From: a virus
Lineage: Duplodnaviria; Heunggongvirae; Uroviricota; Caudoviricetes
IMG/VR virus record: IMGVR_UViG_3300042914_002848
Reading direction: 5' to 3' (one strand)
Length of the DNA: 64,000 bases
The notes below the pieces were generated by a model that was not told where the DNA came from, made no database searches, and saw nothing but the letters and a program-made list of their open reading frames with translations. Below are positions 22,524 to 53,575 of the stretch, in pieces. Position 1 is the first letter of the stretch. Each line of letters begins with the position of its first letter. A program made the position numbers and the translations under genes.

Positions 22524-22553
22524 AGTTTTTGGTTTAGATACTACAAATATAAT

Positions 22554-22581
22554 AAAAAAGGGGGATTTTTCCAAACCCCCC
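22554..22581 (-). terminator. Intrinsic terminator overlapping a TAnnTTTG promoter
   Basis: GGGGGTTT-GGAA-AAATCCCCC-TTTTTT then TATATTTG on the minus strand. Confidence 0.7.
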
Positions 22582-31027: not shown

Positions 31028-31091
31028 ATAGGAGGAATTAACTTACAAAGTAAAGATAATACAGAAATAGGGAATATCCAAACTTTCAATA

Positions 31092-31259
31092 TTAAATTTG
31101 CGTTAAATCTTTTAACCAAGATTTGTTCTTTCTTGAATAAGATTTAGGTGACTTGACCACCTGTTCTGTCATTTTTTTACTGATATGGTGTGCAGCCTCT
31201 CCTGAACTCCAATTGCCGTTAAAATCAAGCAATTTCCTGTCTCTTTTGGTTTTACTCAT
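31092..31259 (-). CDS. 55-aa basic protein with ArfA-like C-terminal motif
   Basis: Manual translation MSKTKRDRKLLDFNGNWSSGEAAHHISKKMTEQVVKSPKSYSRKNKSWLKDLTQI; own promoter upstream; not in the ORF track. Confidence 0.55.
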   Translation of the reverse strand: MSKTKRDRKLLDFNGNWSSGEAAHHISKKMTEQVVKSPKSYSRKNKSWLKDLTQI

Positions 31260-31385: not shown

Positions 31386-31829
31386 TTAATTCGTAAATAG
31401 GGTATTATCCCTGTCAATCGGGTCAATTTTAAACCCATATTTTTTCTTAACCCGCTCTGAAATAGGAATCGGGTTTCCATCCTCATCAATTCTCACAAAG
31501 GTAATATAGGTAGATACAACGGTGGTTTGGTTGCCTGTATATACATTATGCGCTCTTGCTTCAATGTATAGTTTAACCGATGTATTTCCAATATGATTTA
31601 CACTACCATATACCTTTAATAGTTGCCCTTCTTTTGCGGGCTTCTTAAATAGACACTCATCTATTTTAATAGTTACTACACGGGGGGTATCACATACCTG
31701 CATTGCGTACGCAGCTGCGGAAGCATCAATCCACGCCAATGCTTTTCCTCCGAAAAGATTTCCGTGAAAACCTAAATCTGATTTTTTGACGGGATATGTA
31801 TTAATCAGTTCCATCAGTAATTTCTTCAA
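31386..31829 (-). CDS. Acyl-CoA thioesterase (hotdog fold, YciA-like)
   Basis: HGNLFGGKALAWID, FKKPAKEG, GNTS, TFVRID..G.P. Confidence 0.88.
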   Translation of the reverse strand: MKKLLMELINTYPVKKSDLGFHGNLFGGKALAWIDASAAAYAMQVCDTPRVVTIKIDECLFKKPAKEGQLLKVYGSVNHIGNTSVKLYIEARAHNVYTGNQTTVVSTYITFVRIDEDGNPIPISERVKKKYGFKIDPIDRDNTLFTN

Positions 31830-32018
31830 ATGGTATAGATACTATTTCTCTACAAAAAAATAACAAACCATCCTTTTTAAAGGTATGGCTACATTCCCAA
31901 TATTGTTTTATGAAATCTACATTTAGATTTGGTTCTTCTTTCATTGTACGATAGACTTGAAACATACCATCGTTTATATAAATAACCTGTCCTAAATAAC
32001 TCATAATTTATTTTGTTG

Positions 32019-32089
32019 AGCGGGTAGATGGAATCGAACCACCGTCATAGGCTTGGAAAGCGAATGTAATACCATTATACGATACCCGC
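32019..32089 (-). tRNA. tRNA-Gly(TCC) with two anticodon-stem mismatches
   Basis: GCGGGTA/TACCCGC acceptor, GGTTCGATTCC T arm, stem TTCGC/GCCTA. Confidence 0.75.
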
Positions 32090-32127
32090 AAGTATCCCCA
32101 CTAAGGGGGATGTAATCTGAAAAACTA

Positions 32128-32295
32128 TTATTGAGCAGCTGCTGTGCTATCTACAACAGGATACAACTCCTCAGTAGAATCTACAACAGCAGAATCAACT
32201 GGTTCGGCAACCAATTCAGTTTGTTCAGCGTTGTTGGTACAAGCCGTAAATGATACAGCCATAACTACCATTGCGATAAAAAAGATGTTTTTCAT
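32128..32295 (-). CDS. Small acidic lipoprotein (55 aa)
   Basis: MKNIFFIAMVVMAVSFTAC lipobox, then TNNAEQTELVAEPVDSAVVDSTEELYPVVDSTAAAQ; not in the ORF track. Confidence 0.7.
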   Translation of the reverse strand: MKNIFFIAMVVMAVSFTACTNNAEQTELVAEPVDSAVVDSTEELYPVVDSTAAAQ

Positions 32296-32371
32296 AATTA
32301 ATTTGTTTTAAATTTTACACAATATACAAAAGAAATTTCATATTTCCAAATTTTTTCTTAAATAAATACAA

Positions 32372-32755
32372 TTATTTTTTTGATAAAATATCATTAAGCA
32401 TGTTTATTTCAGTTTTAAACATTTCTTCTTCCATTTTCCCACGCTCTTTCTCAATTGCTTTTTGTACTAACCCAATCAATTCATTTGATAAGAATGAACT
32501 AATGGTAAACTCAAATGTATAGTAGTGGTTGGAAACTTTAACCATATTATTTTGCAATATCAAAGTGTATTGTTTATCATCTGTCTGAACATAGTATCTA
32601 CCCGATGGTGTCATCAAGTAGTGGGTTTTTGGATTTGACATCAATCGGATTAAAACCCTCTTTGTTAAAATCTCTCTTTCGGTATAGGGCTCGTGTCTAA
32701 CCAGCCCCTGCCTAAACCAAACCTGCAATTTTTTAAATTTGTATTTTATATTCAT
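32372..32755 (-). CDS. Hypothetical protein
   Basis: Co-oriented ORF between tRNAs. Confidence 0.55.
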   Translation of the reverse strand: MNIKYKFKKLQVWFRQGLVRHEPYTEREILTKRVLIRLMSNPKTHYLMTPSGRYYVQTDDKQYTLILQNNMVKVSNHYYTFEFTISSFLSNELIGLVQKAIEKERGKMEEEMFKTEINMLNDILSKK

Positions 32756-32772
32756 TATTTTTTATTTTTTTG

Positions 32773-32845
32773 TACGGTTAATAGGGTTCGAACCTATACG
32801 GAAACTTTAGAAGAGTTTAATGCTATCCAATTACATCATAACCGC
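32773..32845 (-). tRNA. tRNA-Arg(TCT)
   Basis: AAACT-CTTCTAA-AGTTT anticodon arm, cloverleaf. Confidence 0.9.
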
Positions 32846-32860
32846 AAATTATATAAATAT

Positions 32861-32889
32861 ACTACTCTATCCAACTGAGCTACGGGCGC
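32861..32889 (-). pseudogene. 5' fragment of a tRNA (Arg-like)
   Basis: GCGCCCGTAGCTCAGTTGGATAGAGT then abrupt AT-rich sequence. Confidence 0.7.
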
Positions 32890-32903
32890 ATATTCATTTT
32901 TTG

Positions 32904-32988
32904 TACCTCGGACCGGAATCGAACCGGTACAGCTTCATCAGCTACAGGATTTTAAGTCCTGCGTGGCTACCTATTTCACCACCGAGGC
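32904..32988 (-). tRNA. tRNA-Leu(TAA)
   Basis: CAGGA-CTTAAAA-TCCTG, long variable arm. Confidence 0.92.
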
Positions 32989-33219
32989 ATTATCATTATT
33001 TATCAACTACTTTTTTCCTCACCGCTTCAGATACACTAAACAGTTCACTAAATTGGTCTTTCTTCATTTTTTTTGTTTCACAAAATAACTCAATAGCATC
33101 TTCTAAAGAACTTGCTTTTGTTTTACTAAGTGCTTCTTTTGTAGTGTCCGATTTAAAATAAAAGTAGTATTCTTTCATGTTCTTTCCCATTTAACTTTAC
33201 ACAATATACAAATAATTAT

Positions 33220-33675
33220 TTAATTATCCAAACTTTTTGTGTAATAAAAAACACCTACCCCCGCTTCCTCAAACATTTTGATACTTCGTTCAGCGCTTTC
33301 TTCCCATTTGGGCCCTTTAGCTCCACTATTTGTTCTACATATTATTTCAGATATGCCGGAATTTATTATATTACGAGCACAATCCGCACAAGGTATTCCA
33401 CAAGTCATATACATTTTAGTATTTAGTGTAGATACTCCAATTCTTGCACAATTTATTATAGAATTAGTTTCCGCATGTGAGAACCAAAAGTATTTCTCTG
33501 GTCTTTCTTGTCTTTCATTAACATTATCATTAATCCCTCGTGGAAATGAGTTATAGCCGGTAGAAACAATTTCGTTATCTTTACCAACTATAACCACTCC
33601 GATTTGAGTTTTTTCATCTTTAGATTTTAACTTAACTTGTTCGGCTATGTTAATAAAATATTCATCCCATTTCAT
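33220..33675 (-). CDS. dCMP deaminase
   Basis: SKD..TQIG, STGYN, HAETN, PCADC. Confidence 0.92.
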   Translation of the reverse strand: MKWDEYFINIAEQVKLKSKDEKTQIGVVIVGKDNEIVSTGYNSFPRGINDNVNERQERPEKYFWFSHAETNSIINCARIGVSTLNTKMYMTCGIPCADCARNIINSGISEIICRTNSGAKGPKWEESAERSIKMFEEAGVGVFYYTKSLDN

Positions 33676-33988
33676 ATTTTATATATTTGATAGTAATTAT
33701 AAGTAAAGCGTCTATTTTCATCAAAATTTAAAAGATAGTTTGTATTCCTTATCACCTTCAGTTTTGAAATGAATATTTTTACCCTTCCAATTTACAATTT
33801 CGGTTATCTTATCAGAGCAAAAAGAATAGAATGAACCCATACCATCTGAATACTCAAAATCAAGAACAAGCATATTACCAACATGCGGTCCACCATCTTC
33901 CCAATTTTTGATTCCACCTCGTAAATCTCTTTGGGCCCATTTAACGGATTCGGCTTCCCAAATCCGTCCGCTGTTTACATCTTCTAAT

Positions 33989-34420
33989 TTATACATTTTC
34001 ATTTATATTAATTGCCATCATTCTTTTAATATGCCTATCTCCCTCAAAATCGGTTTCTAAAAAAGTGTTAAGGATATCAATTGCATCATCAATACAAAGA
34101 AACCTTGCGGGTAAACAAATAATATTTGCATTATTATGTGCCCTTGCTAATCGTGCTATATCAACATCCCAACAAAGTGCCGCACGAATACCTGGCCATT
34201 TGTTTGCTGTCATACACACCCCATTACCGCTACCGCATATAAGAATACCAAATTGCGATTTAAAGTTTGAACACATTTTGTGTGCGTAGTCCGGGTAATC
34301 AACGGACTCGGGAGTATTTGTTCCCAAGTCCGTTAATTCCATTCCACACTTATCCATATACTCAATCAGTTGAGTTTTTAATTCCCATCCTGCGTGGTCT
34401 GATGCGATTAGTATTGACAT
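33989..34420 (-). CDS. rpiB: Ribose-5-phosphate isomerase B
   Basis: ASDHAG, DYPD, ICGSGNG, ARAHNNAN, FEGDRH. Confidence 0.95.
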   Translation of the reverse strand: MSILIASDHAGWELKTQLIEYMDKCGMELTDLGTNTPESVDYPDYAHKMCSNFKSQFGILICGSGNGVCMTANKWPGIRAALCWDVDIARLARAHNNANIICLPARFLCIDDAIDILNTFLETDFEGDRHIKRMMAININENV

Positions 34421-34433
34421 TTTTTACCTTATC

Positions 34434-36002
34434 CTAATTTTTTATAATACGCGTTGTGTAATTTCCCGATGGTGTTGTGATATTAACAAAAAGAATACCA
34501 CTTACATTATCTACGATAGTAACCATTGAATGGTTTTCATTGTATGTAATATCCGATTGAACATTAGAACCCATAATATTAAATACTGAAATATTTGTAA
34601 TTCGTTCACCGCATTCTACCATAAATTCATTTTTAATTGGATTGGGATAAACATTCATTCGGTTTGAAATCTCCATATAACGAACCGATGTCCTAATTGT
34701 ATCTGGGTTGAAATTAGACCAACCACTCGTCCAGTCAGATTGACCAAACGCACCACGATGGGTAACGGGCGTAAAGAAATTATTTGAAATTCGGGGATTT
34801 GAAAAAGAAGCACCTGTTAATAGAATACTATTTTGTTGTGGTAATAGCTGTGGGTTTGTTAGGCTATTATAACCCGAAGATAATCCGATTTGGGATGTAC
34901 TATCAAATATCTCATTTCCTCTCAAAGTATCACCAAAATAATTCAACATCCCAGCCCAAGTATTCGTACCTTGTGTTTGTTCAAACTTATTAGTCATATT
35001 AGCAAATACCACTCTTTCAATTTGGAGTGAATCATTAGTCGCATTTAATTGAGCCGATGAACCATCAATATGCAATCCAGTCGGATATCCCATAAAAAGG
35101 GAATTGTAGACCGATGTACGGGTGTTCCTACGAAGATGTAACGCCCTACGATAAAGAGAAGCAGGTCCACCATTTTCTTTTGGGCCGATGATAGTTACAT
35201 TAGAAAATATCGGAGCAGTTTGTGGTGTGTTTGAAGTCCCTGTTCCATCGTTATCGGATTCAAATCCGTTTGATTGAGATTGGTCTGCAATCTGCGGGTC
35301 ACGCATTGAAAGAGCAAATTGAACTTTTCCTCTATAACCAAAATCAGTATCAAAATCATCATCCCATCCACGATGGGCAATCAAGTACTTACAATTGACT
35401 GTACCACCAAACCATTCATAGGAATCATCACCAGAATAGGATACTTGAACATTCTCAACCACAGTCTTACTACCAACCCCACCAAATGTCAATCCATTGA
35501 TTTCACTATTGGGTTGATATGCTATGCCGGGAAATTCAATGCGGACATATCTAAATACACCCGAACTATCTTCATCATCAGTTCCACCATAAGTAGCATC
35601 TTGTCCTAAGAGCCCACCTTCAATAATACCAACTCCACCAGGAATGTTTGTTGTAGCGTTTCCTAATATTACAACCCCACCCCAATCACCATAAGTACGC
35701 TGCCCTACAGTTTGATTGGATGTAAAGATAATTGGTTGAGCCGCCGTTCCGTTTGCATAGATGCGGCCGTTTTTTGTAATAATAAGCGTTCCCTTTGATG
35801 CTTTATCACCTCTGATAATTGTACCAGGTTCAATTGTTAGTGTTGCGCCATTCTTTACAAACCGATTACCTTCTAATAAATAAATTGTTCCACTATTCCA
35901 AGTGGTGTTTGTTGTAATATCTGTTCGGATGGTATCAACTGTAGTTTGCGCTTGTGCGAAACTAAACATGCTCAAAAGAGCGAGAATAAAACTTTTTTTC
36001 AT
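34434..36002 (-). CDS. Secreted beta-helix protein with T9SS type A C-terminal sorting domain
   Basis: Signal peptide ending AQA-Q; GDWGGVVILG, GDDSYEWFGG, DDDFDTD repeats; C-terminal VYPNP...G..F..I....G....RIIKN. Confidence 0.85.
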   Translation of the reverse strand: MKKSFILALLSMFSFAQAQTTVDTIRTDITTNTTWNSGTIYLLEGNRFVKNGATLTIEPGTIIRGDKASKGTLIITKNGRIYANGTAAQPIIFTSNQTVGQRTYGDWGGVVILGNATTNIPGGVGIIEGGLLGQDATYGGTDDEDSSGVFRYVRIEFPGIAYQPNSEINGLTFGGVGSKTVVENVQVSYSGDDSYEWFGGTVNCKYLIAHRGWDDDFDTDFGYRGKVQFALSMRDPQIADQSQSNGFESDNDGTGTSNTPQTAPIFSNVTIIGPKENGGPASLYRRALHLRRNTRTSVYNSLFMGYPTGLHIDGSSAQLNATNDSLQIERVVFANMTNKFEQTQGTNTWAGMLNYFGDTLRGNEIFDSTSQIGLSSGYNSLTNPQLLPQQNSILLTGASFSNPRISNNFFTPVTHRGAFGQSDWTSGWSNFNPDTIRTSVRYMEISNRMNVYPNPIKNEFMVECGERITNISVFNIMGSNVQSDITYNENHSMVTIVDNVSGILFVNITTPSGNYTTRIIKN

Positions 36003-36053
36003 AGATTGTTTTTTTAAATTGTTTAATTGTTTATATAAATAAATATTGATTTT

Positions 36054-36392
36054 TTACTTCCAAAATATTTGTATCAGTATAATAACTCCTGAAAGGATTA
36101 AACATACCATTGTTTTTGTGGTTAGGTTTTCTCCAAAAACTAATTGTGAAAGTATAGCAAAAACCACTACCCCAATACCAAACCCAATAAGACGAGATGG
36201 CCAAAGTAATCCACCATAATGAGTGATGATTTGACGAACCGATTCCATATACATCATTGATATAGGAATACCCATCAATACAATAACCCAATAGTTATCT
36301 TTGAACCATTGGTATTTTAACTGACCCTGGAGTTGATAGAAAGTAAGTATCTGCGCCAAAAGCATCAGTAACATTCCGATTAAAAGTGCCAT
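36054..36392 (-). CDS. Small four-TM membrane protein (SMR/EamA-like)
   Basis: Four hydrophobic segments, FGE motif. Confidence 0.55.
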   Translation of the reverse strand: MALLIGMLLMLLAQILTFYQLQGQLKYQWFKDNYWVIVLMGIPISMMYMESVRQIITHYGGLLWPSRLIGFGIGVVVFAILSQLVFGENLTTKTMVCLILSGVIILIQIFWK

Positions 36393-36411
36393 TTTTTATT
36401 TTTTAAGTTAG

Positions 36412-36485
36412 TAGGGGAAGCGGGACTCGAACCCACAACCTCGTGCTCCCAAAGCACGTAATCTAACCAATTGATATATTCCCCT
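36412..36485 (-). tRNA. tRNA-Pro(TGG)
   Basis: CGTGC-TTTGGGA-GCACG. Confidence 0.9.
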
Positions 36486-36491
36486 ATGTTT

Positions 36492-36697
36492 CCCCACCCT
36501 GAGATTTGGGGTGAGTAGTCATTCTGGTTTTTTCCTATTGATAAAACCTACAGGGCATCCCCTATTAAAACAGTCACACTACGAAGGAGGAGCTGTGAGT
36601 GGCACCTTTAACCCTAAGAACCGGCATTCCGCTGTCCGATTTAAGCGAGCCCATTGTTTAAGTCTTGAACTAAAGACTCTGAGTATCTCTTACTCAT
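36492..36697 (-). ncRNA. Structured ncRNA (about 205 nt) between tRNA-Asp and tRNA-Pro
   Basis: Several hairpins; terminal CUCACCC/GGGUGGG stem with AAUCUCA loop. Confidence 0.65.
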
Positions 36698-36699
36698 TG

Positions 36700-36770
36700 C
36701 GGTTCATAGGGGTTATGCTCCCCTGCCTCGGCAGTGACAGTGCCGTATTCTACTATTATACTAATGAACC
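36700..36770 (-). tRNA. tRNA-Asp(GTC), non-canonical T loop
   Basis: CGGCA-CTGTCAC-TGCCG; T arm AGGGG-AGCATAA-CCCCT. Confidence 0.85.
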
Positions 36771-36774
36771 ATTG

Positions 36775-36847
36775 AGCGGCAAACTGGATTCGAACCAGCG
36801 ACCCTAACCTTGGCAAGGTTATGCTCTACCAACTGAGCTACTGCCGC
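36775..36847 (-). tRNA. tRNA-Gly(GCC)
   Basis: TAACC-TTGCCAA-GGTTA. Confidence 0.95.
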
Positions 36848-36853
36848 AAAGTG

Positions 36854-36926
36854 AGCTTCTTATCGGATTCGAACCAATGACCATCCGCTTACAAGGCGGG
36901 AGCTCTACCAACTGAGCTAAAGAAGC
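36854..36926 (-). tRNA. tRNA-Thr(TGT)
   Basis: CCGC-CTTGTAA-GCGG. Confidence 0.92.
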
Positions 36927-36932
36927 ATTTTG

Positions 36933-37006
36933 TGGACCGTACCGGAGTCGAACCGATGACCTTCTGAATGCAAATCAGACGTTCTAGCCAACTGAACTAA
37001 CAGCCC
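36933..37006 (-). tRNA. tRNA-Ala(TGC)
   Basis: TCTGA-TTTGCAT-TCAGA; G3-U70. Confidence 0.93.
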
Positions 37007-37011
37007 TTTTG

Positions 37012-37085
37012 TAGCGGGTGAGGGATTCGAACCCCCGATTCCTGGCTTATGAGACCTGGCGGATAGACCACTTCCATAACCCGCA
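37012..37085 (-). tRNA. tRNA-Met(CAT), initiator-like acceptor
   Basis: TGCGGGT acceptor with 1-72 mismatch; CTCATAA loop; lacks the three G-C anticodon-stem pairs. Confidence 0.8.
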
Positions 37086-37098
37086 ATATATTTCAATT

Positions 37099-37521
37099 TT
37101 AAAAAATCCTTTTACCTTCAGGATTGAAATGCATAAATTGATGTGTTTCCATATCCGATTGCCATTTGTAGTGAACAACAAGCCCGTTATTATTTTTATA
37201 ATGATTATCACCTAAATTGTGGTGGGTTTCTATTATTCTTGTTAGCATTTCCCTTGCCACATCATCGGATTTAGTTGATTGGGCACACATAATATTTTCA
37301 GTTCCACCCCACTTAAAAAAGTACATAGTCATTAAATCAAATTTAGGATGGACTGTATATATAACCCAATAATCAGATTGATTTAATCTTTCCCAATTTG
37401 TTGTACCAAATTCAAGACGATTTCTTTCTTTGATTTCAGTAACAGTAAATCCAACCATTGGCTTTTGTGCAAACGCAGTTGAACTAAGTAATACAAATAG
37501 GGTAATAAGTAGTTTTTTCAT
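37099..37521 (-). CDS. Secreted hypothetical protein
   Basis: Signal peptide MKKLLITLFVLLSSTAFA-Q. Confidence 0.65.
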   Translation of the reverse strand: MKKLLITLFVLLSSTAFAQKPMVGFTVTEIKERNRLEFGTTNWERLNQSDYWVIYTVHPKFDLMTMYFFKWGGTENIMCAQSTKSDDVAREMLTRIIETHHNLGDNHYKNNNGLVVHYKWQSDMETHQFMHFNPEGKRIF

Positions 37522-37536
37522 AGTTTTTGTTTTTTG

Positions 37537-37610
37537 TACTCCGTACGGGACTCGAACCCGTAAGCTTTCCCGTGAAAGGGGAATGTCCTAACCAATTAGA
37601 CGAACGGAGC
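37537..37610 (-). tRNA. tRNA-Glu(TTC)
   Basis: TTCCC-CTTTCAC-GGGAA. Confidence 0.93.
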
Positions 37611-37620
37611 GTATTGATTG

Positions 37621-37692
37621 CGTCCTGAGTAGGAGTCGAACCTACGACCAACGGATTAACAGTCCGTCGCTCTACCTCTGAGCTATCAAGAC
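37621..37692 (-). tRNA. tRNA-Asn(GTT)
   Basis: ACGGA-CTGTTAA-TCCGT. Confidence 0.93.
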
Positions 37693-37697
37693 AATTG

Positions 37698-37780
37698 TAC
37701 CGAAGGCGAGACTCGAACTCGCAATGCTATAAAGCGCTGGTTTCTAAAACCAGTGTGACTGCCAATTCCACCACTTCGGT
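37698..37780 (-). tRNA. tRNA-Leu(TAG)
   Basis: CTGGT-TTTAGAA-ACCAG. Confidence 0.9.
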
Positions 37781-37824
37781 ATAAATATACAAAATAAATT
37801 TTAATTATCCAAATTTATTTTTTG

Positions 37825-37911
37825 CGGAAGATATTGGATTTGAACCAATGAACCAGTTACCCGATTAACACCTTAGCAGGGTGCCGCTTTAGACCACTCA
37901 GCCAATCTTCC
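37825..37911 (-). tRNA. tRNA-Ser(GCT)
   Basis: GCACC-CTGCTAA-GGTGT, long variable arm. Confidence 0.92.
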
Positions 37912-37916
37912 TTTGG

Positions 37917-37990
37917 GGCGACCGATGGGAATCGAACCCACCCGCACTAGAACCACAATCTAGCGCTCTACCAACTGAGCTACAGCCGCC
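37917..37990 (-). tRNA. tRNA-His(GTG)
   Basis: CTAGA-TTGTGGT-TCTAG; G-1/C73. Confidence 0.92.
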
Positions 37991-37992
37991 AT

Positions 37993-38442
37993 TTAACGGC
38001 AGTGATAATCTGCCGCTTTTGTAGCAATTTGAATATCAGGTTTGACATTCACTTTGTATCCCAACGATAAGGCCCAACCACGAGTTGCTCCTATAAGTTT
38101 GTGGCTAGGTGCAATTTCGTCTTGGTTATAGTCCATATCAATTTCAACATTTATGTTGATTTGTTGGGTAAACCATTCTGCCACTTCCAATGTACGAGCG
38201 CATTCATCAAATAATCTTGTGAACATATCACGCACCAATGGAACTTTTTCTTTTGTGTAAATATAGTGAACACCTCTGATACCAAAACGATATGCTATTG
38301 CAGTTACATACGATGTTTCCAATCCTACATTTTGAGAATCAGTACCAATATGAACTTTTAGATTAGGATACCGTTTCATTATATCCAAGGTATGTTCAAC
38401 AACATCTACCACTCTGTTGTCTACTGATTTAAACCTTTTCAT
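37993..38442 (-). CDS. RNase H-like YkuK/DUF458 protein
   Basis: HIGTDSQ, RLFDE, EIDMDYN, VKPD..IATKAAD. Confidence 0.85.
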   Translation of the reverse strand: MKRFKSVDNRVVDVVEHTLDIMKRYPNLKVHIGTDSQNVGLETSYVTAIAYRFGIRGVHYIYTKEKVPLVRDMFTRLFDECARTLEVAEWFTQQININVEIDMDYNQDEIAPSHKLIGATRGWALSLGYKVNVKPDIQIATKAADYHCR

Positions 38443-38460
38443 CTTCTTTCTTTTTTTTAG

Positions 38461-38534
38461 TAGCGAAAAGCAGAATCGAACTGCTAACCTCAGGATTATG
38501 AGACCTGCGCTCTAACCAATTGAGCTATTTCGCC
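38461..38534 (-). tRNA. tRNA-Met(CAT), elongator-like
   Basis: GGCGAAA acceptor; CTCATAA loop. Confidence 0.88.
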
Positions 38535-38541
38535 ATTCACG

Positions 38542-38614
38542 CACGGGTGGAGAGACTCGAACTCCCAGCCTATGATTTTGGAGATTATTGCTCTGCCAAT
38601 TGAGCTACACCCGT
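38542..38614 (-). tRNA. tRNA-Trp(CCA)
   Basis: CTCCAAA loop; one stem mismatch. Confidence 0.88.
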
Positions 38615-38622
38615 ATTTTTTG

Positions 38623-38693
38623 AGGTACTGATTGGAATTGAACCAATATAAAGGCTTTTGCAGAGCCCCACCTTGCCAGTCGGACACAGTACC
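38623..38693 (-). tRNA. tRNA-Cys(GCA)
   Basis: GGGCT-CTGCAAA-AGCCT; U73. Confidence 0.9.
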
Positions 38694-38699
38694 AAATTG

Positions 38700-38771
38700 T
38701 AGCTCCTAAACGATTCGAACGTTTAACACTTCGTCCGTAGCGAAGCAGTTTATCCATTAGCCTAAGGAGCC
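38700..38771 (-). tRNA. tRNA-Arg(ACG)
   Basis: CTTCG-CTACGGA-CGAAG. Confidence 0.9.
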
Positions 38772-38776
38772 TTGTG

Positions 38777-38850
38777 TTGGAATAGCCGGATTCGAACCAG
38801 CGACCTTTTGAATATCAGTCAAATGCTCTAACCAACTGAGCTATATTCCA
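38777..38850 (-). tRNA. tRNA-Ile(GAT)
   Basis: TTTGA-CTGATAT-TCAAA. Confidence 0.9.
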
Positions 38851-38855
38851 ATGTG

Positions 38856-38937
38856 TGCCTGCAGAAGGACTCGAACCTTCGGACTCAAACGAGAACTGAT
38901 TTACAGTCAGTTGCAATTGCCGCTATGCGATACAGGC
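38856..38937 (-). tRNA. tRNA-Tyr(GTA)
   Basis: ACTGA-CTGTAAA-TCAGT. Confidence 0.9.
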
Positions 38938-38946
38938 ATATTTGTG

Positions 38947-39020
38947 TGGTGAATGGTTGGATTCGAACCAACGACGCGAGGCTCTTCAGGCCTCCGCTCT
39001 ACCAACTGAGCTACATCACC
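38947..39020 (-). tRNA. tRNA-Phe(GAA)
   Basis: GAGGC-CTGAAGA-GCCTC; one-base acceptor bulge. Confidence 0.88.
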
Positions 39021-39025
39021 AAATG

Positions 39026-39159
39026 AACACAATGTTGGAGTACCCATCTCGCTCCAATCTTAACTGCTTATTCGTAGTTTTACGAGGCCTCGGCAGAGGG
39101 TGCTAACTCCATATAGAGACCTGCGCTGGTCTTTGTTCTATACTTCTGTTCATTGTGTT
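39026..39159 (-). ncRNA. Structured ncRNA (about 134 nt)
   Basis: Perfect closing helix AACACAAUG/CAUUGUGUU plus nested helices. Confidence 0.65.
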
Positions 39160-39162
39160 TTG

Positions 39163-39294
39163 TAGTCAGGACAGGATTCGAACCTGTATGTGGTAATCCT
39201 TCCAGATATTTCTCACTTACGTTTTTGCCGTATTAGCGTCTACCATATCCAGCACATACTATTACTCTTTGTGCTTTCATTCCGCCACCTGACT
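39163..39294 (-). ncRNA. tRNA-like RNA, AGUCAGG family, copy A
   Basis: AGTCAGG...ACAGGTTCGAATCCTGTCCTGACT with expanded D loop and no anticodon arm. Confidence 0.8.
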
Positions 39295-39300
39295 ATATTG

Positions 39301-39404
39301 TCCACTCTGTTGGATTCGAACCAACTTACTCGCTCTGTGTTCGGATACCGCAGTACCAGGCGACATAGAGGTCAAAGTGTTTTACCACATAACACTAAGA
39401 GTGA
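39301..39404 (-). ncRNA. tRNA-like RNA with anticodon arm replaced by a long hairpin
   Basis: TCACTCT/AGAGTGG acceptor, GTGT/ACAC D stem, GTTGG-TTCGAAT-CCAAC T arm. Confidence 0.7.
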
Positions 39405-39405
39405 G

Positions 39406-39480
39406 TACACCTTGCTAGATTCGAACTAGCGACCCTTTGCTTGTAAAACAAATGCTCTGAACCAACTGAGCTAAAGGTGT
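39406..39480 (-). tRNA. tRNA-Val(TAC)
   Basis: TTTGT-TTTACAA-GCAAA. Confidence 0.9.
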
Positions 39481-39485
39481 AAATG

Positions 39486-39558
39486 TGACCCCGAACGGAA
39501 TCGAACCGTTACTCCCCTGGTTAAAAGCCAGGTGCTTTACCAATTAAGCTACGAAGTC
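39486..39558 (-). tRNA. tRNA-Lys(TTT)
   Basis: CCTGG-CTTTTAA-CCAGG. Confidence 0.92.
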
Positions 39559-39563
39559 TTTTG

Positions 39564-39637
39564 TACTCCCGACAGGACTTGAACCTGTAACCTCGATGGT
39601 ATAAGCATCTTGCGCTAACCAATTGCGCCACGAGAGC
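39564..39637 (-). tRNA. tRNA-Ile(TAT)
   Basis: GATG-CTTATAC-CATC. Confidence 0.85.
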
Positions 39638-39646
39638 ATAATTATG

Positions 39647-39732
39647 AGGAAGAGGTGAGATTCGAACTCACGGAGCTTTAACACCCTCCGGTTTTCAAGA
39701 CCGGTGCAATAGACCAACTCTGCCACCCTTCC
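39647..39732 (-). tRNA. tRNA-Ser(TGA)
   Basis: CCGGT-CTTGAAA-ACCGG. Confidence 0.92.
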
Positions 39733-39738
39733 ATTATG

Positions 39739-39866
39739 TAGTCAGGACAGGATTCGAACCTGTACGCAGGGCTTTCTAAGTCTTTGCCTCCTGCATCCCT
39801 CTTGAGTGTCCTTCTGTATTGCTACATTTCCTCCGTTGGATTGCGTCTACATTCCGCCACCTGACT
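39739..39866 (-). ncRNA. tRNA-like RNA, AGUCAGG family, copy B
   Basis: Same acceptor/T arm as copy A; Leu-type D arm; enlarged anticodon loop and variable arm. Confidence 0.8.
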
Positions 39867-39873
39867 ATATTTA

Positions 39874-40023
39874 AAGTAACCCAACTCAGAAGGGTATTTG
39901 TTACATTATCACAGCTTTTGCAATGTACTCTGGTTAATTATTCCGTCTGTACCCAACCGCTTTATGTTGGCTTATAGCTGGCTATTTTAATGCAACTCAC
40001 AACTTTATTTGTTGGAATTACTT
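39874..40023 (-). ncRNA. Possible structured ncRNA (about 150 nt)
   Basis: Closing helix AAGUAAUUCCAAC/GUUGGGUUACUU. Confidence 0.5.
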
Positions 40024-40027
40024 TTTG

Positions 40028-40149
40028 CAGTCAGGACAGGATTCGAACCTGTGACATTGCAACCCTTATACTTCTCGCGTCCAAATGATTTTGAATCGTG
40101 GTGTTTTTGGGATGTGATAAACCTCTTTCACATTACGCAATACCTGACT
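40028..40149 (-). ncRNA. tRNA-like RNA, AGUCAGG family, copy C
   Basis: Same acceptor/T arm; interior unrelated to copies A and B. Confidence 0.8.
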
Positions 40150-40154
40150 ATATG

Positions 40155-40225
40155 TTGCCCCCCAAGGATTCGAACCTCGATAAACAGAATCAAAGTCTGC
40201 TGTCCTGCCGTTAGACGAGGGGGCA
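40155..40225 (-). tRNA. tRNA-Gln(TTG)
   Basis: GCAGA-CTTTGAT-TCTGT. Confidence 0.92.
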
Positions 40226-40239
40226 GTGGTTTTCCAAGA

Positions 40240-40250
40240 TGTCAAAGAAC
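40240..40250 (-). promoter_or_regulatory. boxA-like antitermination site
   Basis: GTTCTTTGACA between the promoter and the first tRNA. Confidence 0.6.
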
Positions 40251-40346
40251 GATGGTTTTTTAGTGAGAACCAACTCAAGAACTAAACAAATATACGAATA
40301 AATTTTTAAATTTCCAAGCTTTCAATATTAAATTTGCGTTAATAAT

Positions 40347-40376
40347 AAAAAAGCCCGAATTTTGTGGTTCGGGCTT
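40347..40376 (-). terminator. Intrinsic terminator (attenuator)
   Basis: AAGCCCGAA-CCACAAAA-TTCGGGCTT-TTTT. Confidence 0.9.
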
Positions 40377-40400
40377 GCTCTTTTAGATTTGTATTCTTTA

Positions 40401-40502
40401 TTAGATACACATCCACGGAACAACCCCATAGGTATAATCTACCTTAATGGCTGTAAACCAATGCTGATTTGAGAGATTACGTGGGTGTGTTATTGAATGC
40501 AT
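40401..40502 (-). CDS. Putative attenuator leader peptide (33 aa)
   Basis: MHSITHPRNLSNQHWFTAIKVDYTYGVVPWMCI; A-rich initiation region; overlaps the antiterminator. Confidence 0.7.
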   Translation of the reverse strand: MHSITHPRNLSNQHWFTAIKVDYTYGVVPWMCI

Positions 40503-40570
40503 GATATTTTTGTTTTTTCCGAATATAAATATACAAAAAATAAATAAAAACTATTAATTTAATTTTTTTG

Positions 40571-40644
40571 TGTTCCTGGTAGGGTTCGAACCTACGACCA
40601 CCTGATTATGAGTCAGACGCTCTAACCTGCTGAGCTACGGGAAC
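40571..40644 (-). tRNA. tRNA(CAT), Ile2 or Met
   Basis: TCTGA-CTCATAA-TCAGG. Confidence 0.85.
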
Positions 40645-40786
40645 GATTTTTTTAGATTAATGATGTTAAAATATTACCAACAATAGCAAAGGCCCAAGCT
40701 ATAATTACTAAAGTTGAAAAACCTACTGCTAAATAGTAAAATACATCATCCGGTGTGGTTTTTAGTTTCATACCTATTACTTTTTA

Positions 40787-43066
40787 TTAGCGATATAATG
40801 TAACAATACTACCAAACTCTTCATCAAAGATTTTAAGTAAGTTTTCATAATCACCACTCATCATCCTATTGGTAATTTCTTTTGAATCCTTACCAAGTTG
40901 TTTGGCCAAATTTCGTGCAGTTCCTATAAGAAAGAATGCGTTTCCTTGAGGACCAGTCAAATCAATTTCTAAATTGCGGTTGGTTGGTTTTTTCTTTATC
41001 ATAATTTTTATTTTAAATAATTTGGTCCGTATGGGGTATAATTACAACCTTCAATAACATTTCCACGACTAATTGCGGCGGGTTGACGGTGGGTTGCTGC
41101 TTTCAATAAATCACCTCTAAGATAAGGTTTACCTTTTAATACACCATTATTACGGGCGATAAATCCCCACGCACAATTGTTTACTGTGATTTTGTGAAAT
41201 TTACTTCCGGTGTTTAACTTTATATCAACTACCGCCCTACCGAATTGAGCATTGTAATACTCATTCAGTTGGGATGTTAATACATTCATAAAATCCTCAA
41301 TAGTGGAGCAGGGGGGGCAATTCAATTGTTTCATATAAAATTTAGGTTAAATCTTTAATTTATAAAATCTGATGTGTTGACAATAAAATCTTCTTCTTTG
41401 CCTGTATGAAAATTCTTAACAACTACAATGAATGAGTTTTCATTGAATTTACCGTGAACCATACCTTCACGAATAACTCCATTATCATTGAATTTACGAA
41501 TTTCTGAAATCTTTATTTTGTTCATAATATTAATTAAGCTGTGATACCACTCATATATGGTAATAACTCAACCTTAGCTTTTTCAGCTATCTTAGCATCT
41601 ACATACTTTACAGTATCGTTAAAGGTTCTCCCACTACGGACCTCATTCACAACCCACTCTACAGTACCAAAGCGGGGTTGGTTTTCAGTAAATGCGTATT
41701 TAACACCGGCCTCCAACTCCAATCCATTATCGGAAATAGTACCACTATTTTCATAACTTTCATACATATCAATCATTCCATTGAATTTACCATACTCCCA
41801 CATATCCACAAAATCAGAAATCGTTTTGAAGGATTGAGAGTCAATTGGAGCACCTAATTTGGTGGATACATACACACGGAGGGAGTTACCACCCGAAAAA
41901 GAATCGGATGCCACACGGCACAGCACATTTGGGAAATTTCGTTTAACAAACTGCTTCACCAAAAGACCGGCGGTGGGGGGATTCACATACACATACTTAC
42001 TACCCTTATTAGGGCCGTAGTTTTTAGTACGAATTGCTTTCAACGGGAGTTCGTAAGAAGAACCGTGGATACTAACTGAAAATTTTGTCATAATATAGGG
42101 GGTTTAATTTTTTTTAGGATGCTAATTCGGTATCAAATCTTTGAACAGGCTCTTTAAGCAGGTTTACCCTACAAGGTTCATCAACGATGAAAAGGTAAAC
42201 AAGCAATAAACTCATTAGGTTCGTTTTCATATCTCTCATTAACTTACAAAGTAAAGATACTACAGAAAACCTATATTTCCAAGCTTTCAATATTAAATTA
42301 TCGTTAAATTTATCCACATTTTGCTCTAAATCCACGAAATAGTGTCCACTAAATTGGACACTATTTTATATGGGTGGTTAATTCCACCTTTTTTCGTGCC
42401 GTTCCTTTAATTCATTTACCTCTGATTTAACTTCCGACCAATATGCATATCCTCTATCTGCCCCCATATCACCCAACACCTCATTACAGGTTATTAATGC
42501 GCATTGGATTGCTTCACTCCACCTGCTACTACAACAATTAATTCCTGTGTTTAGGCTACCATTGTTGGGGAATGAGTAATAAAATTTATCCACCAAAAAT
42601 TTTGCTTTTTCTTTTGCAGTCATCATAGCATTTACAATTTTTTATCATTATTCTTTTTATACAAATGCGTTGTAATGATGAATATCGCAAAAATAACCAT
42701 CATTATAAATGATAGTATTGTAAAATCTATTTTAATCATAACTTTATTTTTTTATTAATTTTATGATATCATCCAATTAATATCCTGTTTGTATGTAATA
42801 CTTTCATACCCATAATACTCATTAATTGTAAATTCGGTATCAACGGGTATTAAACATACTGATAAACCGGATATACCTCCAAGATGTATGCCTGGATAAG
42901 TTTTTTCTACATATGATATGGTGGCATCGTAATTACCTGATTCAACCAACTCAATTAATTTTGGGTCAAAAACTGCGTTTGGTGGTGCTCCATAGGTATA
43001 AAACCCTGAACCATACCCTTCAGATATTAAGACCTTGGTCATACCATCAACAACTACTTTTTCCAT
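40787..43066 (-). other. Small early hypothetical ORFs (40787-41002, 41008-41334, 41534-42091, 42378-42626, 42761-43066)
   Basis: Co-oriented short ORFs; 41534-42091 (DSFSGGNS...GKFNGMIDMYE) resembles LPD29. Confidence 0.6.
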
Positions 43067-45396: not shown

Positions 45397-46525
45397 CTAA
45401 TTATAGAATAATCCTTCAGATAACTTAATGCTTAATGTATGGTCCATATAATCCCACGCGTGCATTCCTGCTATTTCCCTTAGTTTACTATCTCTAGCTA
45501 ACCACATAACACTATCATATTGTAATTCCCCAATATAATTGGAGGATTTCATTTGTTCCAAAATTGCGGAAACCGATAAGGGATACTTATCAGCCTGTCC
45601 TTCAATTACTGCTTTAGCTTCCTGCTTCAATCGCTCAAATAGATTTTTCATAATTTTTATTTTTTAATTTACAATGTAAAGATATTACAGAAAGAGCAAT
45701 TTTCCAAGCTTTCAATATTAAATTATCGTTAAGTTTTTCTCAATAATGAGACGAACCCGTTCCCTATCAACGGAATCAAATTCAATGTCGCTTAATGGCA
45801 TGCTTTCCAAATACTCATTACAGGCGGCAATAATCCCCTTTTTTGTAGTAAGTGGGTAAATACCATTACGCAACTCATAAAAAGTTATACAATATTTGTA
45901 AAACTCTTTGATTAAAACTGAATATTTTTTCATATCTTTTTTTGTTACATAGTAAAGATACTACTAAAACCCCATATTTCCAAGCTTTTTTCCCAAAAGT
46001 TATCCACATTTTAGGGTTAAAAAGTGTCCAATATATTGGACAGTTCTTATTGACCTTGGGTCTGTGAATCTACAATCCCAAAAACCTCACTTATAACCGA
46101 AACAATTCGATATGGGATTATTTTATTTATTATCTACTCAAAAATGATAGTTGAACTTCTTTTAAAAGTTTCCTGCCCAATTTTTTATCAGTACGCAAGG
46201 TAGATTTGTTTTTTACACTCAATAATGTATTAGCCCTCACCAACTTTTCTATTTCAGTTTCGTTGTAACCCATACTTTTCCACGTCTCAATTAATTTACT
46301 TTCGATACCCCTAAGTTGTTCACTAATCTCATTTTCCATATGAGATTGGTTTATCTTAAAAAAGATATTACCACGCCTTATTTTATCCAAAAAAGAATAA
46401 CCCATACGGGACATGCAAAAGTGTTGGTAAATCTGCCTACGTTGGTTATAATCCATACCTACCATCTTTTTTTCCATAATTTCTACCGTTTCTTTGAAAC
46501 GGTACCTTTTATTATTTGCACACAT
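45397..46525 (-). other. Three small early ORFs, each with its own promoter (45397-45651, 45718-45933, 46130-46525)
   Basis: Promoter-like sequence immediately upstream of each. Confidence 0.6.
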
Positions 46526-48051: not shown

Positions 48052-48137
48052 TTTTTTAACTTACATAGTAAAGATACAACAGAAAACCCATATTTCCAAG
48101 CTTTCAATATTAAATTATCGTTAAGTTTAGGTTAAAG

Positions 48138-48872: not shown

Positions 48873-51800
48873 TTACCGCACTCGCTTGGATAGCGATTTC
48901 CAATCGAATGGTACACCATGAATGGATTCTTCAAAAAACCGTCTTGCTTTTTCTGCTTTTTCTTCATCAGAAAAATGAGTTACAGCGCTTAGTTTGCTAT
49001 CTACCACCATCAGTTCAGCAATGGATACTATCTCACCCCCATATTCTTGTTGGTGTTTTTTCTTAAAGTAGTTGATTTTATTAATCGCTTTAATCTGCTT
49101 TAATGGAGTGGATGCTTTAATCAGCTCACCTGTCCAGTATTGGATTTTAGGGATGTACCCTTCCTTATACTTAGTATTTTTCATTTCTGATATGTTTTTA
49201 AATTCCTTTCCACTTTTTTCCTACCATCGTATTAGCGAATCGTTTGTGTTCTTCTACACACCATTGGGTTGATGTGATAGGTGGTTCGGTAACAGATTTA
49301 ATGTTAGGGCTGTGTTCTAATCCTAATTTTTTTGGATTTGAGTTTATAGGGTTGTATTTAAAGTCCATTGGTCTTACTATAGTATTACTACTACTATATA
49401 CTCGTTTTCTATTGAATAGGGATTGGATTAGCTTTTTCATTGCTGTTTTTATTTTTGTTTAATTCACCTTTTTAGTTGGGATTAGTATCATAGCTGCGTC
49501 ATCTTTGACTAATTCCCAATTATAGTCATTATGAAGGTAGAATGAACGATCACTATTTTCTGTATCACAACCCCTAACTTGAATAAAATTCTTACATAAC
49601 CCAAGCGAAACAGCTACATTGTTTGAAACAATGCTATCACATCCATATTGGCGTGTATGCTTTGAGAAATCAAAGTACTTGCTTTCTTCCGGAAAGCATT
49701 CAGAGTGGTTTGCTTTGATTATTGATTTCCATTTATTACAAGCCAATTCATACAACCCACGAATTGCTTCATCGGTAGTTGTCCCATCCAACTTAAAGTG
49801 TTTGGTGAGATAGTCTTTTTGTGGTGTGGTGGCCGCCTCGTAATATTCATTGAGTAATGTACGATGGATTTGAATTGTTTTTACTTCGGGGTTTGACATA
49901 GGTTTTGTATTTGTAATTTGACGGAATTGTTCTAAGGTAATTTCTTGATAATTTTTGTAATTAGGGTCGTCCCTAACGGCGGCGGCATCATCGCTGTAAT
50001 AACAACTATTATCTGATTGATGCTCTGAGAGCAGCGTATGACCGACCGAGAAGTGGTATCTTAGAAGATATTGAGTAGCGTTTTTTAGCCTCCAAGCATT
50101 GAGTTCTTCGCGGTTTTCTTCGGTGGCTTGGATGTACCATTTTGTGGGGAGTGTGTTCATGTTTTTGGGGTTAGTGATTTGGCGGAATTGTTCGAGTGTG
50201 ATTGGTTGGTGATTAGGGTACTGTTCAATGCAGTCTTCTATGCAGTCTGAAAAGTAGTAACTGCCGTCTGGATGCGAGGACATTAGGGTAAATCCAATCG
50301 TGAATATCTTCCAAGATTTGTCCGCATTTGCCCTCCACCAAGGGTAGAGTTCTGCAAAGTTCTGTTCGGTGGCTTGGATGCACCAATGTTCGGGATGTGT
50401 GTTCATAAGTTTTATTTTGCAATTATTACCTGAAGTTTTTCAATACATTTAACACGTGTTGCAACATCGTCAAATTCTTTCACAGCTTTCTTGGCAGCCA
50501 TAACCCCACTTGCAACTACATGGTAATTACCGATTCCTCCTCCTGAGGAATTATATGCTTTTATAAGGTAAAGTTTCATAACCTTTTTATTTTTGTTTAA
50601 TTCTTCTCATGCGAATAGTAGTTATTTCTTTCTAAGAACTCCGACGGAAAATAATCAGACCATTTAAGTCCCATATAATCATACTTACTACAAGTATATT
50701 GTAGTTTAGGGCAGTGTTCCCCATTCGGGAAAATTATCATCTCTATAGGAACTTTATAAGTACGGGTTGAACCAATTGGACGAACCATAACTAATACCCG
50801 GCCCATCGCTCGTAGACGGGGTTTTTTAATAACCTCCAAATCTTGTCCAACCAACTTTGGTTCGGTACAAGTAACTATAGTACCCACTTTGAGGGTAAAT
50901 TCCTCACGCCTTTTTTCCATTTCTAGTTTGTATTTCATAGCTGAAATAGTTATATTATGCAAACTAAGAAGTTTATCACTTAAAAAATCAAGCTCTTCAG
51001 AATCCAGATATTTCAATTTTTCTACGGGTGGTTTATCAGACAGTATGTAATCATACAGAAAATTAGTCTCAGTTAGTACACTTACCATCAATGGGAATTT
51101 TTCGAATTTGTTCATAATTGTTTATTTTGTTACCATTAAAGTTGCTACTACACATTCCATATCGCGAAACATTTTTACGGGCATTATAGCCTTCAAATCG
51201 TTAGTATCGTAATAGCCCAAATAATTATGATAGTGGGTTGGGAGTTTGATATTTGCGTTCTTACCTGTAATGCGTTCTACATAATTTACCACCTCTTTGA
51301 TAATCATGTAATTTCCTTTTTTTAATAACATATCTTTTATTTTATTCTCCGAAAATTAGTAGTAAATAGTAAAACAAAGTGTACCCACCAAGCAGAAATA
51401 GGTAGCCATATATAACCTCTTTGGGTTCATTTTTCCACATATCCCTTATTTCTTTAAACATCTCTTTCATATCTCTCATTAACTCTTTCATATCTCTCAT
51501 TTAACTTACAAAGTAAAGATAGTACATAAAGGGTAAAGTTCCAAGCTTTCTATGTTAAATTTAGGTTAAATTTTTCCACATCCTCCAAAATAAGGCGTTC
51601 TAAGGGGTTGGTGTGGTATAATTGAGGGAATGGGATGTACCAATCAAAGTGCGTCCCATCATCATTCCAAAAAGTTATATAAAACTTACCATTTTTGGGG
51701 TTAAAACTGGGTTCTTTGGTGTGATGTTTGGTCTGTAAATTTTCAATAATCAGTTCCATACCACTTAACTAACCACAATCTTAATAGTATCCTTCTTTTT

Positions 51801-53376: not shown

Positions 53377-53575
53377 TAACTTACAAAGTAAAGATAGTAC
53401 ATAAAGGGTAAAGTTCCAAGCTTTCTATGTTAAATTTAGGTTAAATTTATCCACATTCTACTGTCCAATTTATTGGACACTTTTTTTATATACACCCCCC
53501 CCCATAAAGATACAACAGAAAATCCATATTTCCAAACTTTTTTCAAAAAAAATTTGCCCCCCATTGGGGTACTCT

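Follow-up and report, generated by a model that had tools for sequence, protein, structure and literature searches.

A strong intrinsic terminator at the front of a tRNA gene array in an uncultured phage is preceded by a 33-codon open reading frame (ORF), the end of which can pair with the 5′ arm of the terminator in the manner of leader-peptide attenuators. We found that this attenuator geometry is real and quantitatively on par with that of proven attenuators. In the interpretation that we favour, though tentatively and with slightly less than an even chance of its being right, the terminator is gated by translation and works as a general sensor of decoding speed, giving the tRNA array a conditional second input. 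The element was noticed in a 64,000-nucleotide stretch of viral DNA (IMG/VR record IMGVR_UViG_3300042914_002848), called the window below, and all coordinates refer to it unless another record is named.

Results

The window is part of a large freshwater phage, the long ORFs of which are all on the minus strand; the sequencing runs that contain DNA of this phage come from lake, river and drinking-water samples. Most of its genes have no Shine-Dalgarno (SD) sequence, and A-rich stretches stand ahead of their ATG. ARAGORN finds 26 tRNAs in the window. A tRNA-Asp(GUC) at 36700-36770 (minus strand) has an aberrant T-loop and was missed by ARAGORN but found by Rfam with 47.8 bits, and with it the phage set covers 20 of 20 amino acids. 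The final backbone gene, tRNA-Met(CAU) (40570-40644, minus strand), is followed by a variable insert, the tRNA island (36409-40564), which opens with tRNA-Gln(UUG) (40154-40225, minus strand). From tRNA-Gln to tRNA-Asn at 37620 the island has 16 tRNAs, after which come tRNA-Glu and six more.

The island also contains further non-coding RNAs. Three of the RNAs in the region 39153-40150 share a tRNA-like acceptor and T-arm and form a repeat family (at 39153, 39729 and 40018). All three are missing between tRNA-Gln and tRNA-Ser of the related contig L006, and one is copied to a different site in another contig, L007 (641-774); the family thus behaves as mobile inserts. Elsewhere in the window, a 27-nt fragment resembling a tRNA 5′ acceptor and D-arm lies at 32863-32889 (minus strand), just upstream of tRNA-Arg(UCU), where relatives have only a 13-nt spacer.

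In the closest long contigs (L003-L005), the neighbouring genes are 90-98% identical to those of the window and tRNA-Met is present, but the homology stops at 40564, and tRNA-Met leads straight into tRNA-Glu or into DNA that matches the window at 36404. These contigs have neither the ORF nor the terminator, most of the tRNA island is missing from them, and they carry only 3-5 tRNAs in the 12.5-kb stretches examined, versus 27 in the window. The unit is carried by three short metagenome contigs, L006, L007 and L008, the last of which holds its 3′ part only. The ORF of L006 has three substitutions (two synonymous ones and His14Tyr), a divergence equal to the local background. L007, which has no tRNA-Met, carries the more distant allele: its 5′ UTR is ~90% identical, codons 5-14 of the ORF (40461-40490, minus strand) are ~50% diverged with no indel between flanks of 90-100% identity, and from codon 15 on the sequence is identical but for two substitutions. 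It is the L007 allele that was seen in all four of the sequencing runs compared, of which two are of RNA libraries and two of DNA. In every comparison the left edge of homology falls at 40553-40564, so the unit constitutes the leading end of the island and travels along with it.

A second diverged patch lies close by. In a gene for a 39-residue membrane-like protein, 36 nt (40667-40702) differ from L006 by 21 substitutions with no indel, in DNA that is otherwise 96-100% identical. Together with the patch at codons 5-14 in L007, this suggests that short patches may have been exchanged between phage lineages. In one contig from a DNA run (X13), 40417-40522, which is most of the ORF and its 5′ UTR, is replaced by letters that do not align, making a third allele. 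Some DNA-run contigs had joints apparently linking tRNA-Met directly to tRNA-Gln; their short sides are 20-24 nt long and may originate in other organisms. Searches for more distant homologues of the unit returned none: megablast and blastn of 40200-40700 against 50,697 phage records gave tRNA matches only, pattern scans of IMG/VR (for the terminator, the back-translated peptide, the 5′ UTR with the start, and the terminator with a free loop) gave nothing, and neither did a pattern scan of genome contigs.

We then considered the terminator and its alternative pairing. The terminator (40345-40376, minus strand), which the reading made from the sequence alone had already called strong, consists of a 5′ arm (40376-40368), an 8-nt loop (40367-40360), a 3′ arm (40359-40351) and a U-run to 40347. 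Its 9-bp stem with the U-run (-13.4 kcal/mol) stands between the ORF and the tRNA genes and is the same in L006, L007 and L008; only three coding-strand terminators of comparable strength occur in the ~46 kb scanned. The alternative structure described in the sequence-only reading was also found, with GGG at 40427-40425 pairing with CCC at 40373-40371 and 40423-40418 with 40380-40375, a G/G mismatch lying between the two. These two outer pairings enclose an inner hairpin (40415-40384), and the resulting candidate antiterminator (40371-40427, minus strand) occupies five of the nine bases of the terminator 5′ arm. The stop codon of the ORF lies in the loop of the inner hairpin, so that a ribosome completing the ORF would melt the antiterminator.

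The strength of this alternative was expressed as a gain, the free-energy advantage of pairing the terminator 5′ arm with its actual upstream sequence. For 50-70 nt of upstream sequence, the gain is -9.7 to -12.5 kcal/mol, as against -1.9±2.2 kcal/mol for random genomic upstream segments; 0 to 0.7% of such segments reached the observed gain (-9.7 to -10.8 kcal/mol), and 1.7% did so when the inner hairpin was held fixed and only its 5′ flank was replaced. The two other strong terminators of the window have gains of only -0.8 to -3.6 kcal/mol, which is the null level. One of them (22544-22581, minus strand) overlaps the -33 region of the next promoter and has no upstream alternative pairing.

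When 120 nt or more of the leader were left free, the gain dropped to -2.2 to -3.8 kcal/mol in all three alleles. The competing 5′ pairing gave p values of 0.002 and 0.07 against random genomic blocks, and of 0.10 and 0.085 against composition-matched shuffles, and these, like other p values for this locus, are somewhat optimistic because the locus was chosen by a reader seeking interesting features. A plain duplex test of the competing pairing failed for L007. The alternative fold has -21.6 kcal/mol when the terminator 3′ arm is withheld, versus -24.3 to -26.0 kcal/mol for the fold with the terminator; wherever the ribosome was placed in the simulation, the minimum-energy fold contained the terminator. 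The consensus fold of the three alleles, all of them near-identical, has 45 pairs, none with a double change; the helices are identical in all the alleles found, and hence no covariation is seen. The comparison with relatives that had been proposed along with the attenuator, for a conserved short ORF and a covarying antiterminator, therefore did not come out in its favour, the helices being invariant and the closest full-length relatives being without the element.

For comparison, the same script was applied to the trpL, hisL, thrL and leuL attenuators of E. coli (from NC_000913.3). Their gains were -8.3, -2.7, -9.0 and -7.6 kcal/mol, respectively, with 50-60% of the 5′ arm sequestered and with the terminator folds far more stable at equilibrium. 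Two objections to the phage element, namely that the terminator wins at equilibrium and that only a part of its arm is sequestered, were dropped, as both are true of trpL, thrL, leuL and hisL as well. Since these controls behave alike, of the arguments for a weak switch only the lower barrier still counts against the element: 5.3 kcal/mol was computed for the passage from antiterminator to terminator, versus 7.8-15.6 kcal/mol for thrL, leuL and hisL. The rise and fall of the gain with the length of free upstream sequence is common to the phage leader, trpL, thrL, leuL and a terminator (terminator 3) of the Caulobacter phage phiCbK.

The genome of phiCbK (JX100813) has annotated terminators just before tRNA blocks, at 49745-49769 and 51465-51502, and its record L014 contains units of a mini-ORF and a terminator at 4342-4503 and 2541-2770. 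A 32-codon ORF, with nine Phe, Val, Ile or Gln codons within 12, stands ahead of a Phe-Val-Ile-Ile-Val-Gln-Gln tRNA block, and the gain of this leader is -24 kcal/mol with 80 nt of upstream sequence and at the null level with 120 nt. Another phiCbK terminator, before the Pro-Pro block, has a strong gain too, and one more does not. These units indicate that the arrangement of mini-ORF, terminator and tRNA block exists in at least one well-studied phage. By the same measure, phiCbK shares with the leader described here both this order of parts and a strong antiterminator signal. The phiCbK leader, however, has a dense codon run and, within the ORF, a near-copy of the terminator 3′ arm, whereas ours has no run, at most three codons for any amino acid, an array for nearly all amino acids and an intervening promoter. 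A full-text literature search found no paper describing an attenuator arrangement for phage tRNA genes or the phiCbK units.

It is the gain above the random level, the match with E. coli and phiCbK and the loss of the advantage when the whole leader is free that make us regard the geometry as real. Of the trp/his-type attenuator claimed in the sequence-only reading, then, the geometry held, its gain being unusual and of the size seen in E. coli, and the sensing of almost all amino acids was not supported.

The ORF itself (40401-40502, minus strand) is as previously described, 33 codons long and containing 19 of the 20 amino acids, with only Glu missing. It starts with ATG in an A-rich context, with A at -3 and -6 and no SD sequence, like the real genes of this phage; this fits SD-less initiation in Bacteroidota, for which A at -3 and -6 has been reported (PMC6847099), and would be in keeping with translation of the ORF. 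The frame is open in three alleles despite the ~50% diverged patch, and between L007 and the window the 5′ UTR and the first four codons are ~90% conserved, compared with 78-82% for the neighbouring genes. The codon-usage score was 0.00 for the ORF and -0.17 for its L007 allele, versus 0.47±0.19 for windows of real genes and -0.16 to 0.00 for spurious ORFs; the ORF thus scores below 99% of real 33-codon gene windows and inside the range of spurious ORFs. A leader peptide, however, need not show normal codon usage.

Relatives of the peptide were sought with phmmer among 1.8 billion representative proteins, where only one near-identical protein (P0001) was found, the remaining matches being repetitive proteins. 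The peptide had no match in PHROGs and a low recognition score in a protein-atlas search, there was no match to the ORF in Rfam, and no called gene on record corresponds to the L007 peptide. The absence of indels from the diverged patch was dropped as evidence for coding, because a similar indel-free patch lies in the neighbouring 39-residue gene. We also rejected a type I toxin, the peptide having no hydrophobic span; a hypervariable target of the DGR type, the substitutions in the patch not being adenine-specific; and a degenerate tRNA or tRNA-scaffold RNA at the leader, to which no similarity was found.

Promoters were placed with the published consensus of Bacteroidota sigma-A, including the position of its -7 box at -12 to -5 (PMC9723704), and the recurrent promoters of the window have the TTG...TAnnTTTG form of this consensus. 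The TATTTAT motif noted earlier ahead of the ORF is present, as part of a -7-like box, TATATTTA (40533-40526), in a degenerate promoter-like element (40526-40557, minus strand) that has no -33 TTG. The box has a predicted transcription start near 40521, the ORF start lies 18-19 nt behind the box, and in L007 its TA reads CA. Promoters ahead of other tRNA sub-arrays (32317, 33199, 37780 and 44303) have a similar -7 region. The box may act as a weak promoter, and the ORF may be translated.

The host-type promoter between the terminator and tRNA-Gln, which had been given as a caveat to the attenuator, proved to be strong and a match to the consensus, with TTG at 40317-40315, TATATTTG at 40294-40287 and a predicted start near 40282. 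It is part of a conserved Bacteroidota-type phage promoter element (40274-40349, minus strand), 34 nt of which recur in the nearest virus record. It belongs to a family of seven copies, all on the minus strand (31072-31093, 40308-40329, 42273-42294, 45698-45719, 48090-48111, 51535-51556 and 53410-53431). Upstream of the core, the members share a conserved block of ~40 nt to which a phage regulator could bind, and this block occurs twice in the nearest virus record (L001, L002). With a consensus promoter of this family between the terminator and the first tRNA, the array is not dependent on read-through; genes controlled by a typical attenuator would lack a promoter of their own behind the terminator, and here there is one.

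Contigs from the RNA libraries of two studies carry the L007 allele, each spanning ORF, terminator and promoter without interruption. The first begins beyond 40540 and has its other end exactly at 40226, a single base short of the tRNA-Gln 5′ end, and the second extends from 40525 through tRNA-Gln. They fit read-through transcripts cut by RNase P, a weak hint given their depths of 2.7 and 5.4, the fact that contigs cannot prove RNA ends and the possible carry-over of DNA. Stretches without cover in the RNA runs are evidence of nothing.

Discussion

Our preferred explanation is that 40557-40345 would be a short transcription unit that leads into the mobile tRNA island at its 5′ edge, composed of a weak promoter, the 33-codon ORF and a switchable intrinsic terminator. 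It would be transcribed both from the weak -7 box (40533-40526) and by polymerases arriving from the upstream operon. A ribosome that reaches the stop codon would unwind the 5′ strand of the hairpin 40427-40371, the terminator would fold and transcription would stop. If, instead, the ribosome lags or stalls in about codons 2-20, this hairpin would form first and occupy five of the nine bases of the terminator arm, and some polymerases would continue past the island promoter to transcribe tRNA-Gln and the array. In the absence of any ribosome, the 5′ portion of the leader would compete for the same strand and cancel most of the advantage of the antiterminator. The leader would thereby add a conditional input atop the strong promoter of the array, and would not be a device for checking all 20 amino acids one by one. 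The translation of the ORF, the activity of the -7 box, the control of read-through and any link to the depletion of tRNAs are inferences from the sequence.

In the translation-gated model, the element would have much in common with enterobacterial attenuators such as trpL, thrL, leuL, hisL and those of the ilvL type, all of which have a leader ORF, a terminator, a strand at the end of the ORF that competes for the 5′ arm and a further upstream strand that cancels this competition. ilvL and thrL are multivalent attenuators. Unlike in the enterobacterial systems, there is no run of regulatory codons in the phage leader, tRNA genes rather than those of biosynthetic enzymes lie behind it, a strong promoter intervenes, the host is an SD-less member of the Bacteroidota and the barrier is lower. 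Leader-peptide attenuation is used by Flavobacteria (PMC9723704).

Switches that respond to translation stress in general offer another parallel. The upstream ORFs of whiB7 in mycobacteria and of topAI-yjhQ in E. coli (toiL) reportedly contain no run of regulatory codons, and slowed ribosomes are said to raise the expression downstream of them, in the case of toiL via Rho. These general switches reportedly (bioRxiv 10.1101/2023.06.02.543512 and PMC12121999) control bacterial protein-coding stress genes, whereas the phage element stands before tRNA genes and has an intrinsic terminator. The supposed purpose of the phage leader, the opening of a terminator when the charging of tRNA fails, is that of T-box riboswitches too; the proposed phage mechanism, however, needs a ribosome and not an RNA that binds tRNA. 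T-box riboswitches sense uncharged tRNA directly. Neither a T-box nor any other Rfam family was found at 40345-40560, a permissive Rfam scan of 31500-41500 giving only tRNAs and matches at chance level.

The most serious rival, which we consider less likely, is a constitutive terminator that ends the upstream operon (a promoter near 42.3 kb, five small genes and tRNA-Met) and insulates the island, the ORF being a product of chance and the pairing having no regulatory role. This would explain the strong independent promoter directly behind the terminator, a terminator-then-promoter layout that is found at 22581-22544 as well, and it agrees with the spurious-like codon usage of the ORF, the lack of a protein or RNA family match and the apparent freedom of codons 5-14 from constraint. 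Nor is the diversity of the peptide an obstacle to it, as 2-30% of chance ORFs with this composition attain 17 to 19 distinct amino acids; and the relatives that have no island run from tRNA-Met into the next genes without a terminator. What speaks against simple punctuation is that it needs three coincidences at once, none of which is seen at the other two strong terminators. The alternative pairing would have arisen by chance, which happens in at most 1% of random upstream segments; an open frame with a good start context would by chance extend from a -7 box to a stop codon inside the alternative hairpin; and the pairing would by chance be neutralised by the 5′ leader in all alleles.

The amino-acid content of the ORF bears on a different rival, the full claim of the sequence-only reading, according to which the leader is a roster of nearly all amino acids and tRNAs, and the loss of almost any charged tRNA, for example to host anticodon nucleases, opens the terminator. 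Among stop-free shuffles of the bases of the ORF, 1.9% had at least 19 distinct amino acids, as did 0.5% of ORFs generated from the phage codon usage and two of the 63 ATG ORFs of 30-36 codons in the window. The 16 tRNAs that come next serve 14 amino acids, every one of which is represented in the ORF of the window (as in 2.4% of composition-matched shuffles and in 0.17% under the codon usage of the phage), and under strict decoding both alleles sample 17 of the 22 island anticodons (null 13.0-13.5±1.8, with 2.5-5% reaching 17). The one missing amino acid, Glu, is that whose tRNA belongs to the backbone common to the relatives without the island, a coincidence noticed post hoc; tRNA-Glu is, however, in the array while Glu is not in the leader. 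Since the phage tRNAs cover all 20 amino acids, the matching of codons to anticodons has little power here.

The L007 allele weakens the roster considerably. Its peptide has 17 of the 20 amino acids, Lys, Arg and Glu being missing, and 30% of composition-matched chance ORFs reach 17; it covers 12 of the 14 island amino acids, as do 45% of shuffles. The L007 array carries tRNA-Lys and tRNA-Arg, though its leader has neither Lys nor Arg, and so with the same array behind it the full roster has not been maintained. There is, then, a mild excess of diversity in the ORF, which is not kept as a full amino-acid roster. Moreover, a stall would favour the antiterminator only in about codons 2-20, and in each of the two alleles this stretch contains 13 amino acids. 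Each amino acid is used three times at most, Val-Val is the sole tandem run, and no codon is enriched as a regulatory codon would be. In theory, a regulatory codon that makes up a small fraction of the control region confers low sensitivity to partial starvation (PMC1183508), as would be the case for the single codons of this leader; if one tRNA were lost completely, a single codon could nonetheless be enough to stall a ribosome. The ORF therefore does not appear to be built to sense nearly any charged tRNA, and we think this explanation improbable. We see as little likelihood in a version of it in which the leader is a test strip read by the ribosome, sampling the codons of the island tRNAs so that the loss of any of many charged tRNAs, by starvation or anticodon nucleases, would boost their replacements. 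Feedback control of a viral tRNA supply by such a leader was not found described in the literature.

A still smaller probability attaches to an ordinary phage gene for a 33-residue protein with its own weak promoter and terminator, the N-terminal part of which evolves fast as in an arms race. The 90% conservation of the 5′ UTR and the first four codons, the open frame and the good start context are all compatible with such a gene, and among the 19 C-terminal residues the alleles differ only by the change of Lys20 to Thr. The codon usage, however, is in the lowest 1% of real gene windows, a single near-identical copy was found among 1.8 billion proteins, and the conservation of the C-terminal part has another cause, the identity of the DNA there being due to the recent sharing of the island. 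Least probable of all is a non-coding small RNA of ~175 nt (~40521 to ~40347) that acts in trans or in tRNA processing: a promoter-like box and a terminator do bracket a unit of that size in an island that has other non-coding RNAs, and with the terminator the unit folds better than shuffles (z of -3.3 and -2.8), but without it z is only -2.0 and -1.3, the predicted folds differ between alleles, and neither compensatory changes nor an Rfam match were found.

The tRNA arrays of phages are seen as counter-measures to host defences that cleave tRNAs and as aids to codon usage, and to our knowledge almost nothing is known of how their expression is controlled. If the element is only a terminator with a chance ORF, it calls for caution, the amino-acid diversity of a 33-codon frame being weak evidence. 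If, on the other hand, the terminator is gated by the ribosome, the phage would gauge the speed of decoding directly and tune the transcription of its tRNA genes accordingly. This would extend trp-type attenuation from the supply of amino acids to the supply of tRNAs, in the form of a switch that can move about at the head of a mobile tRNA cassette.
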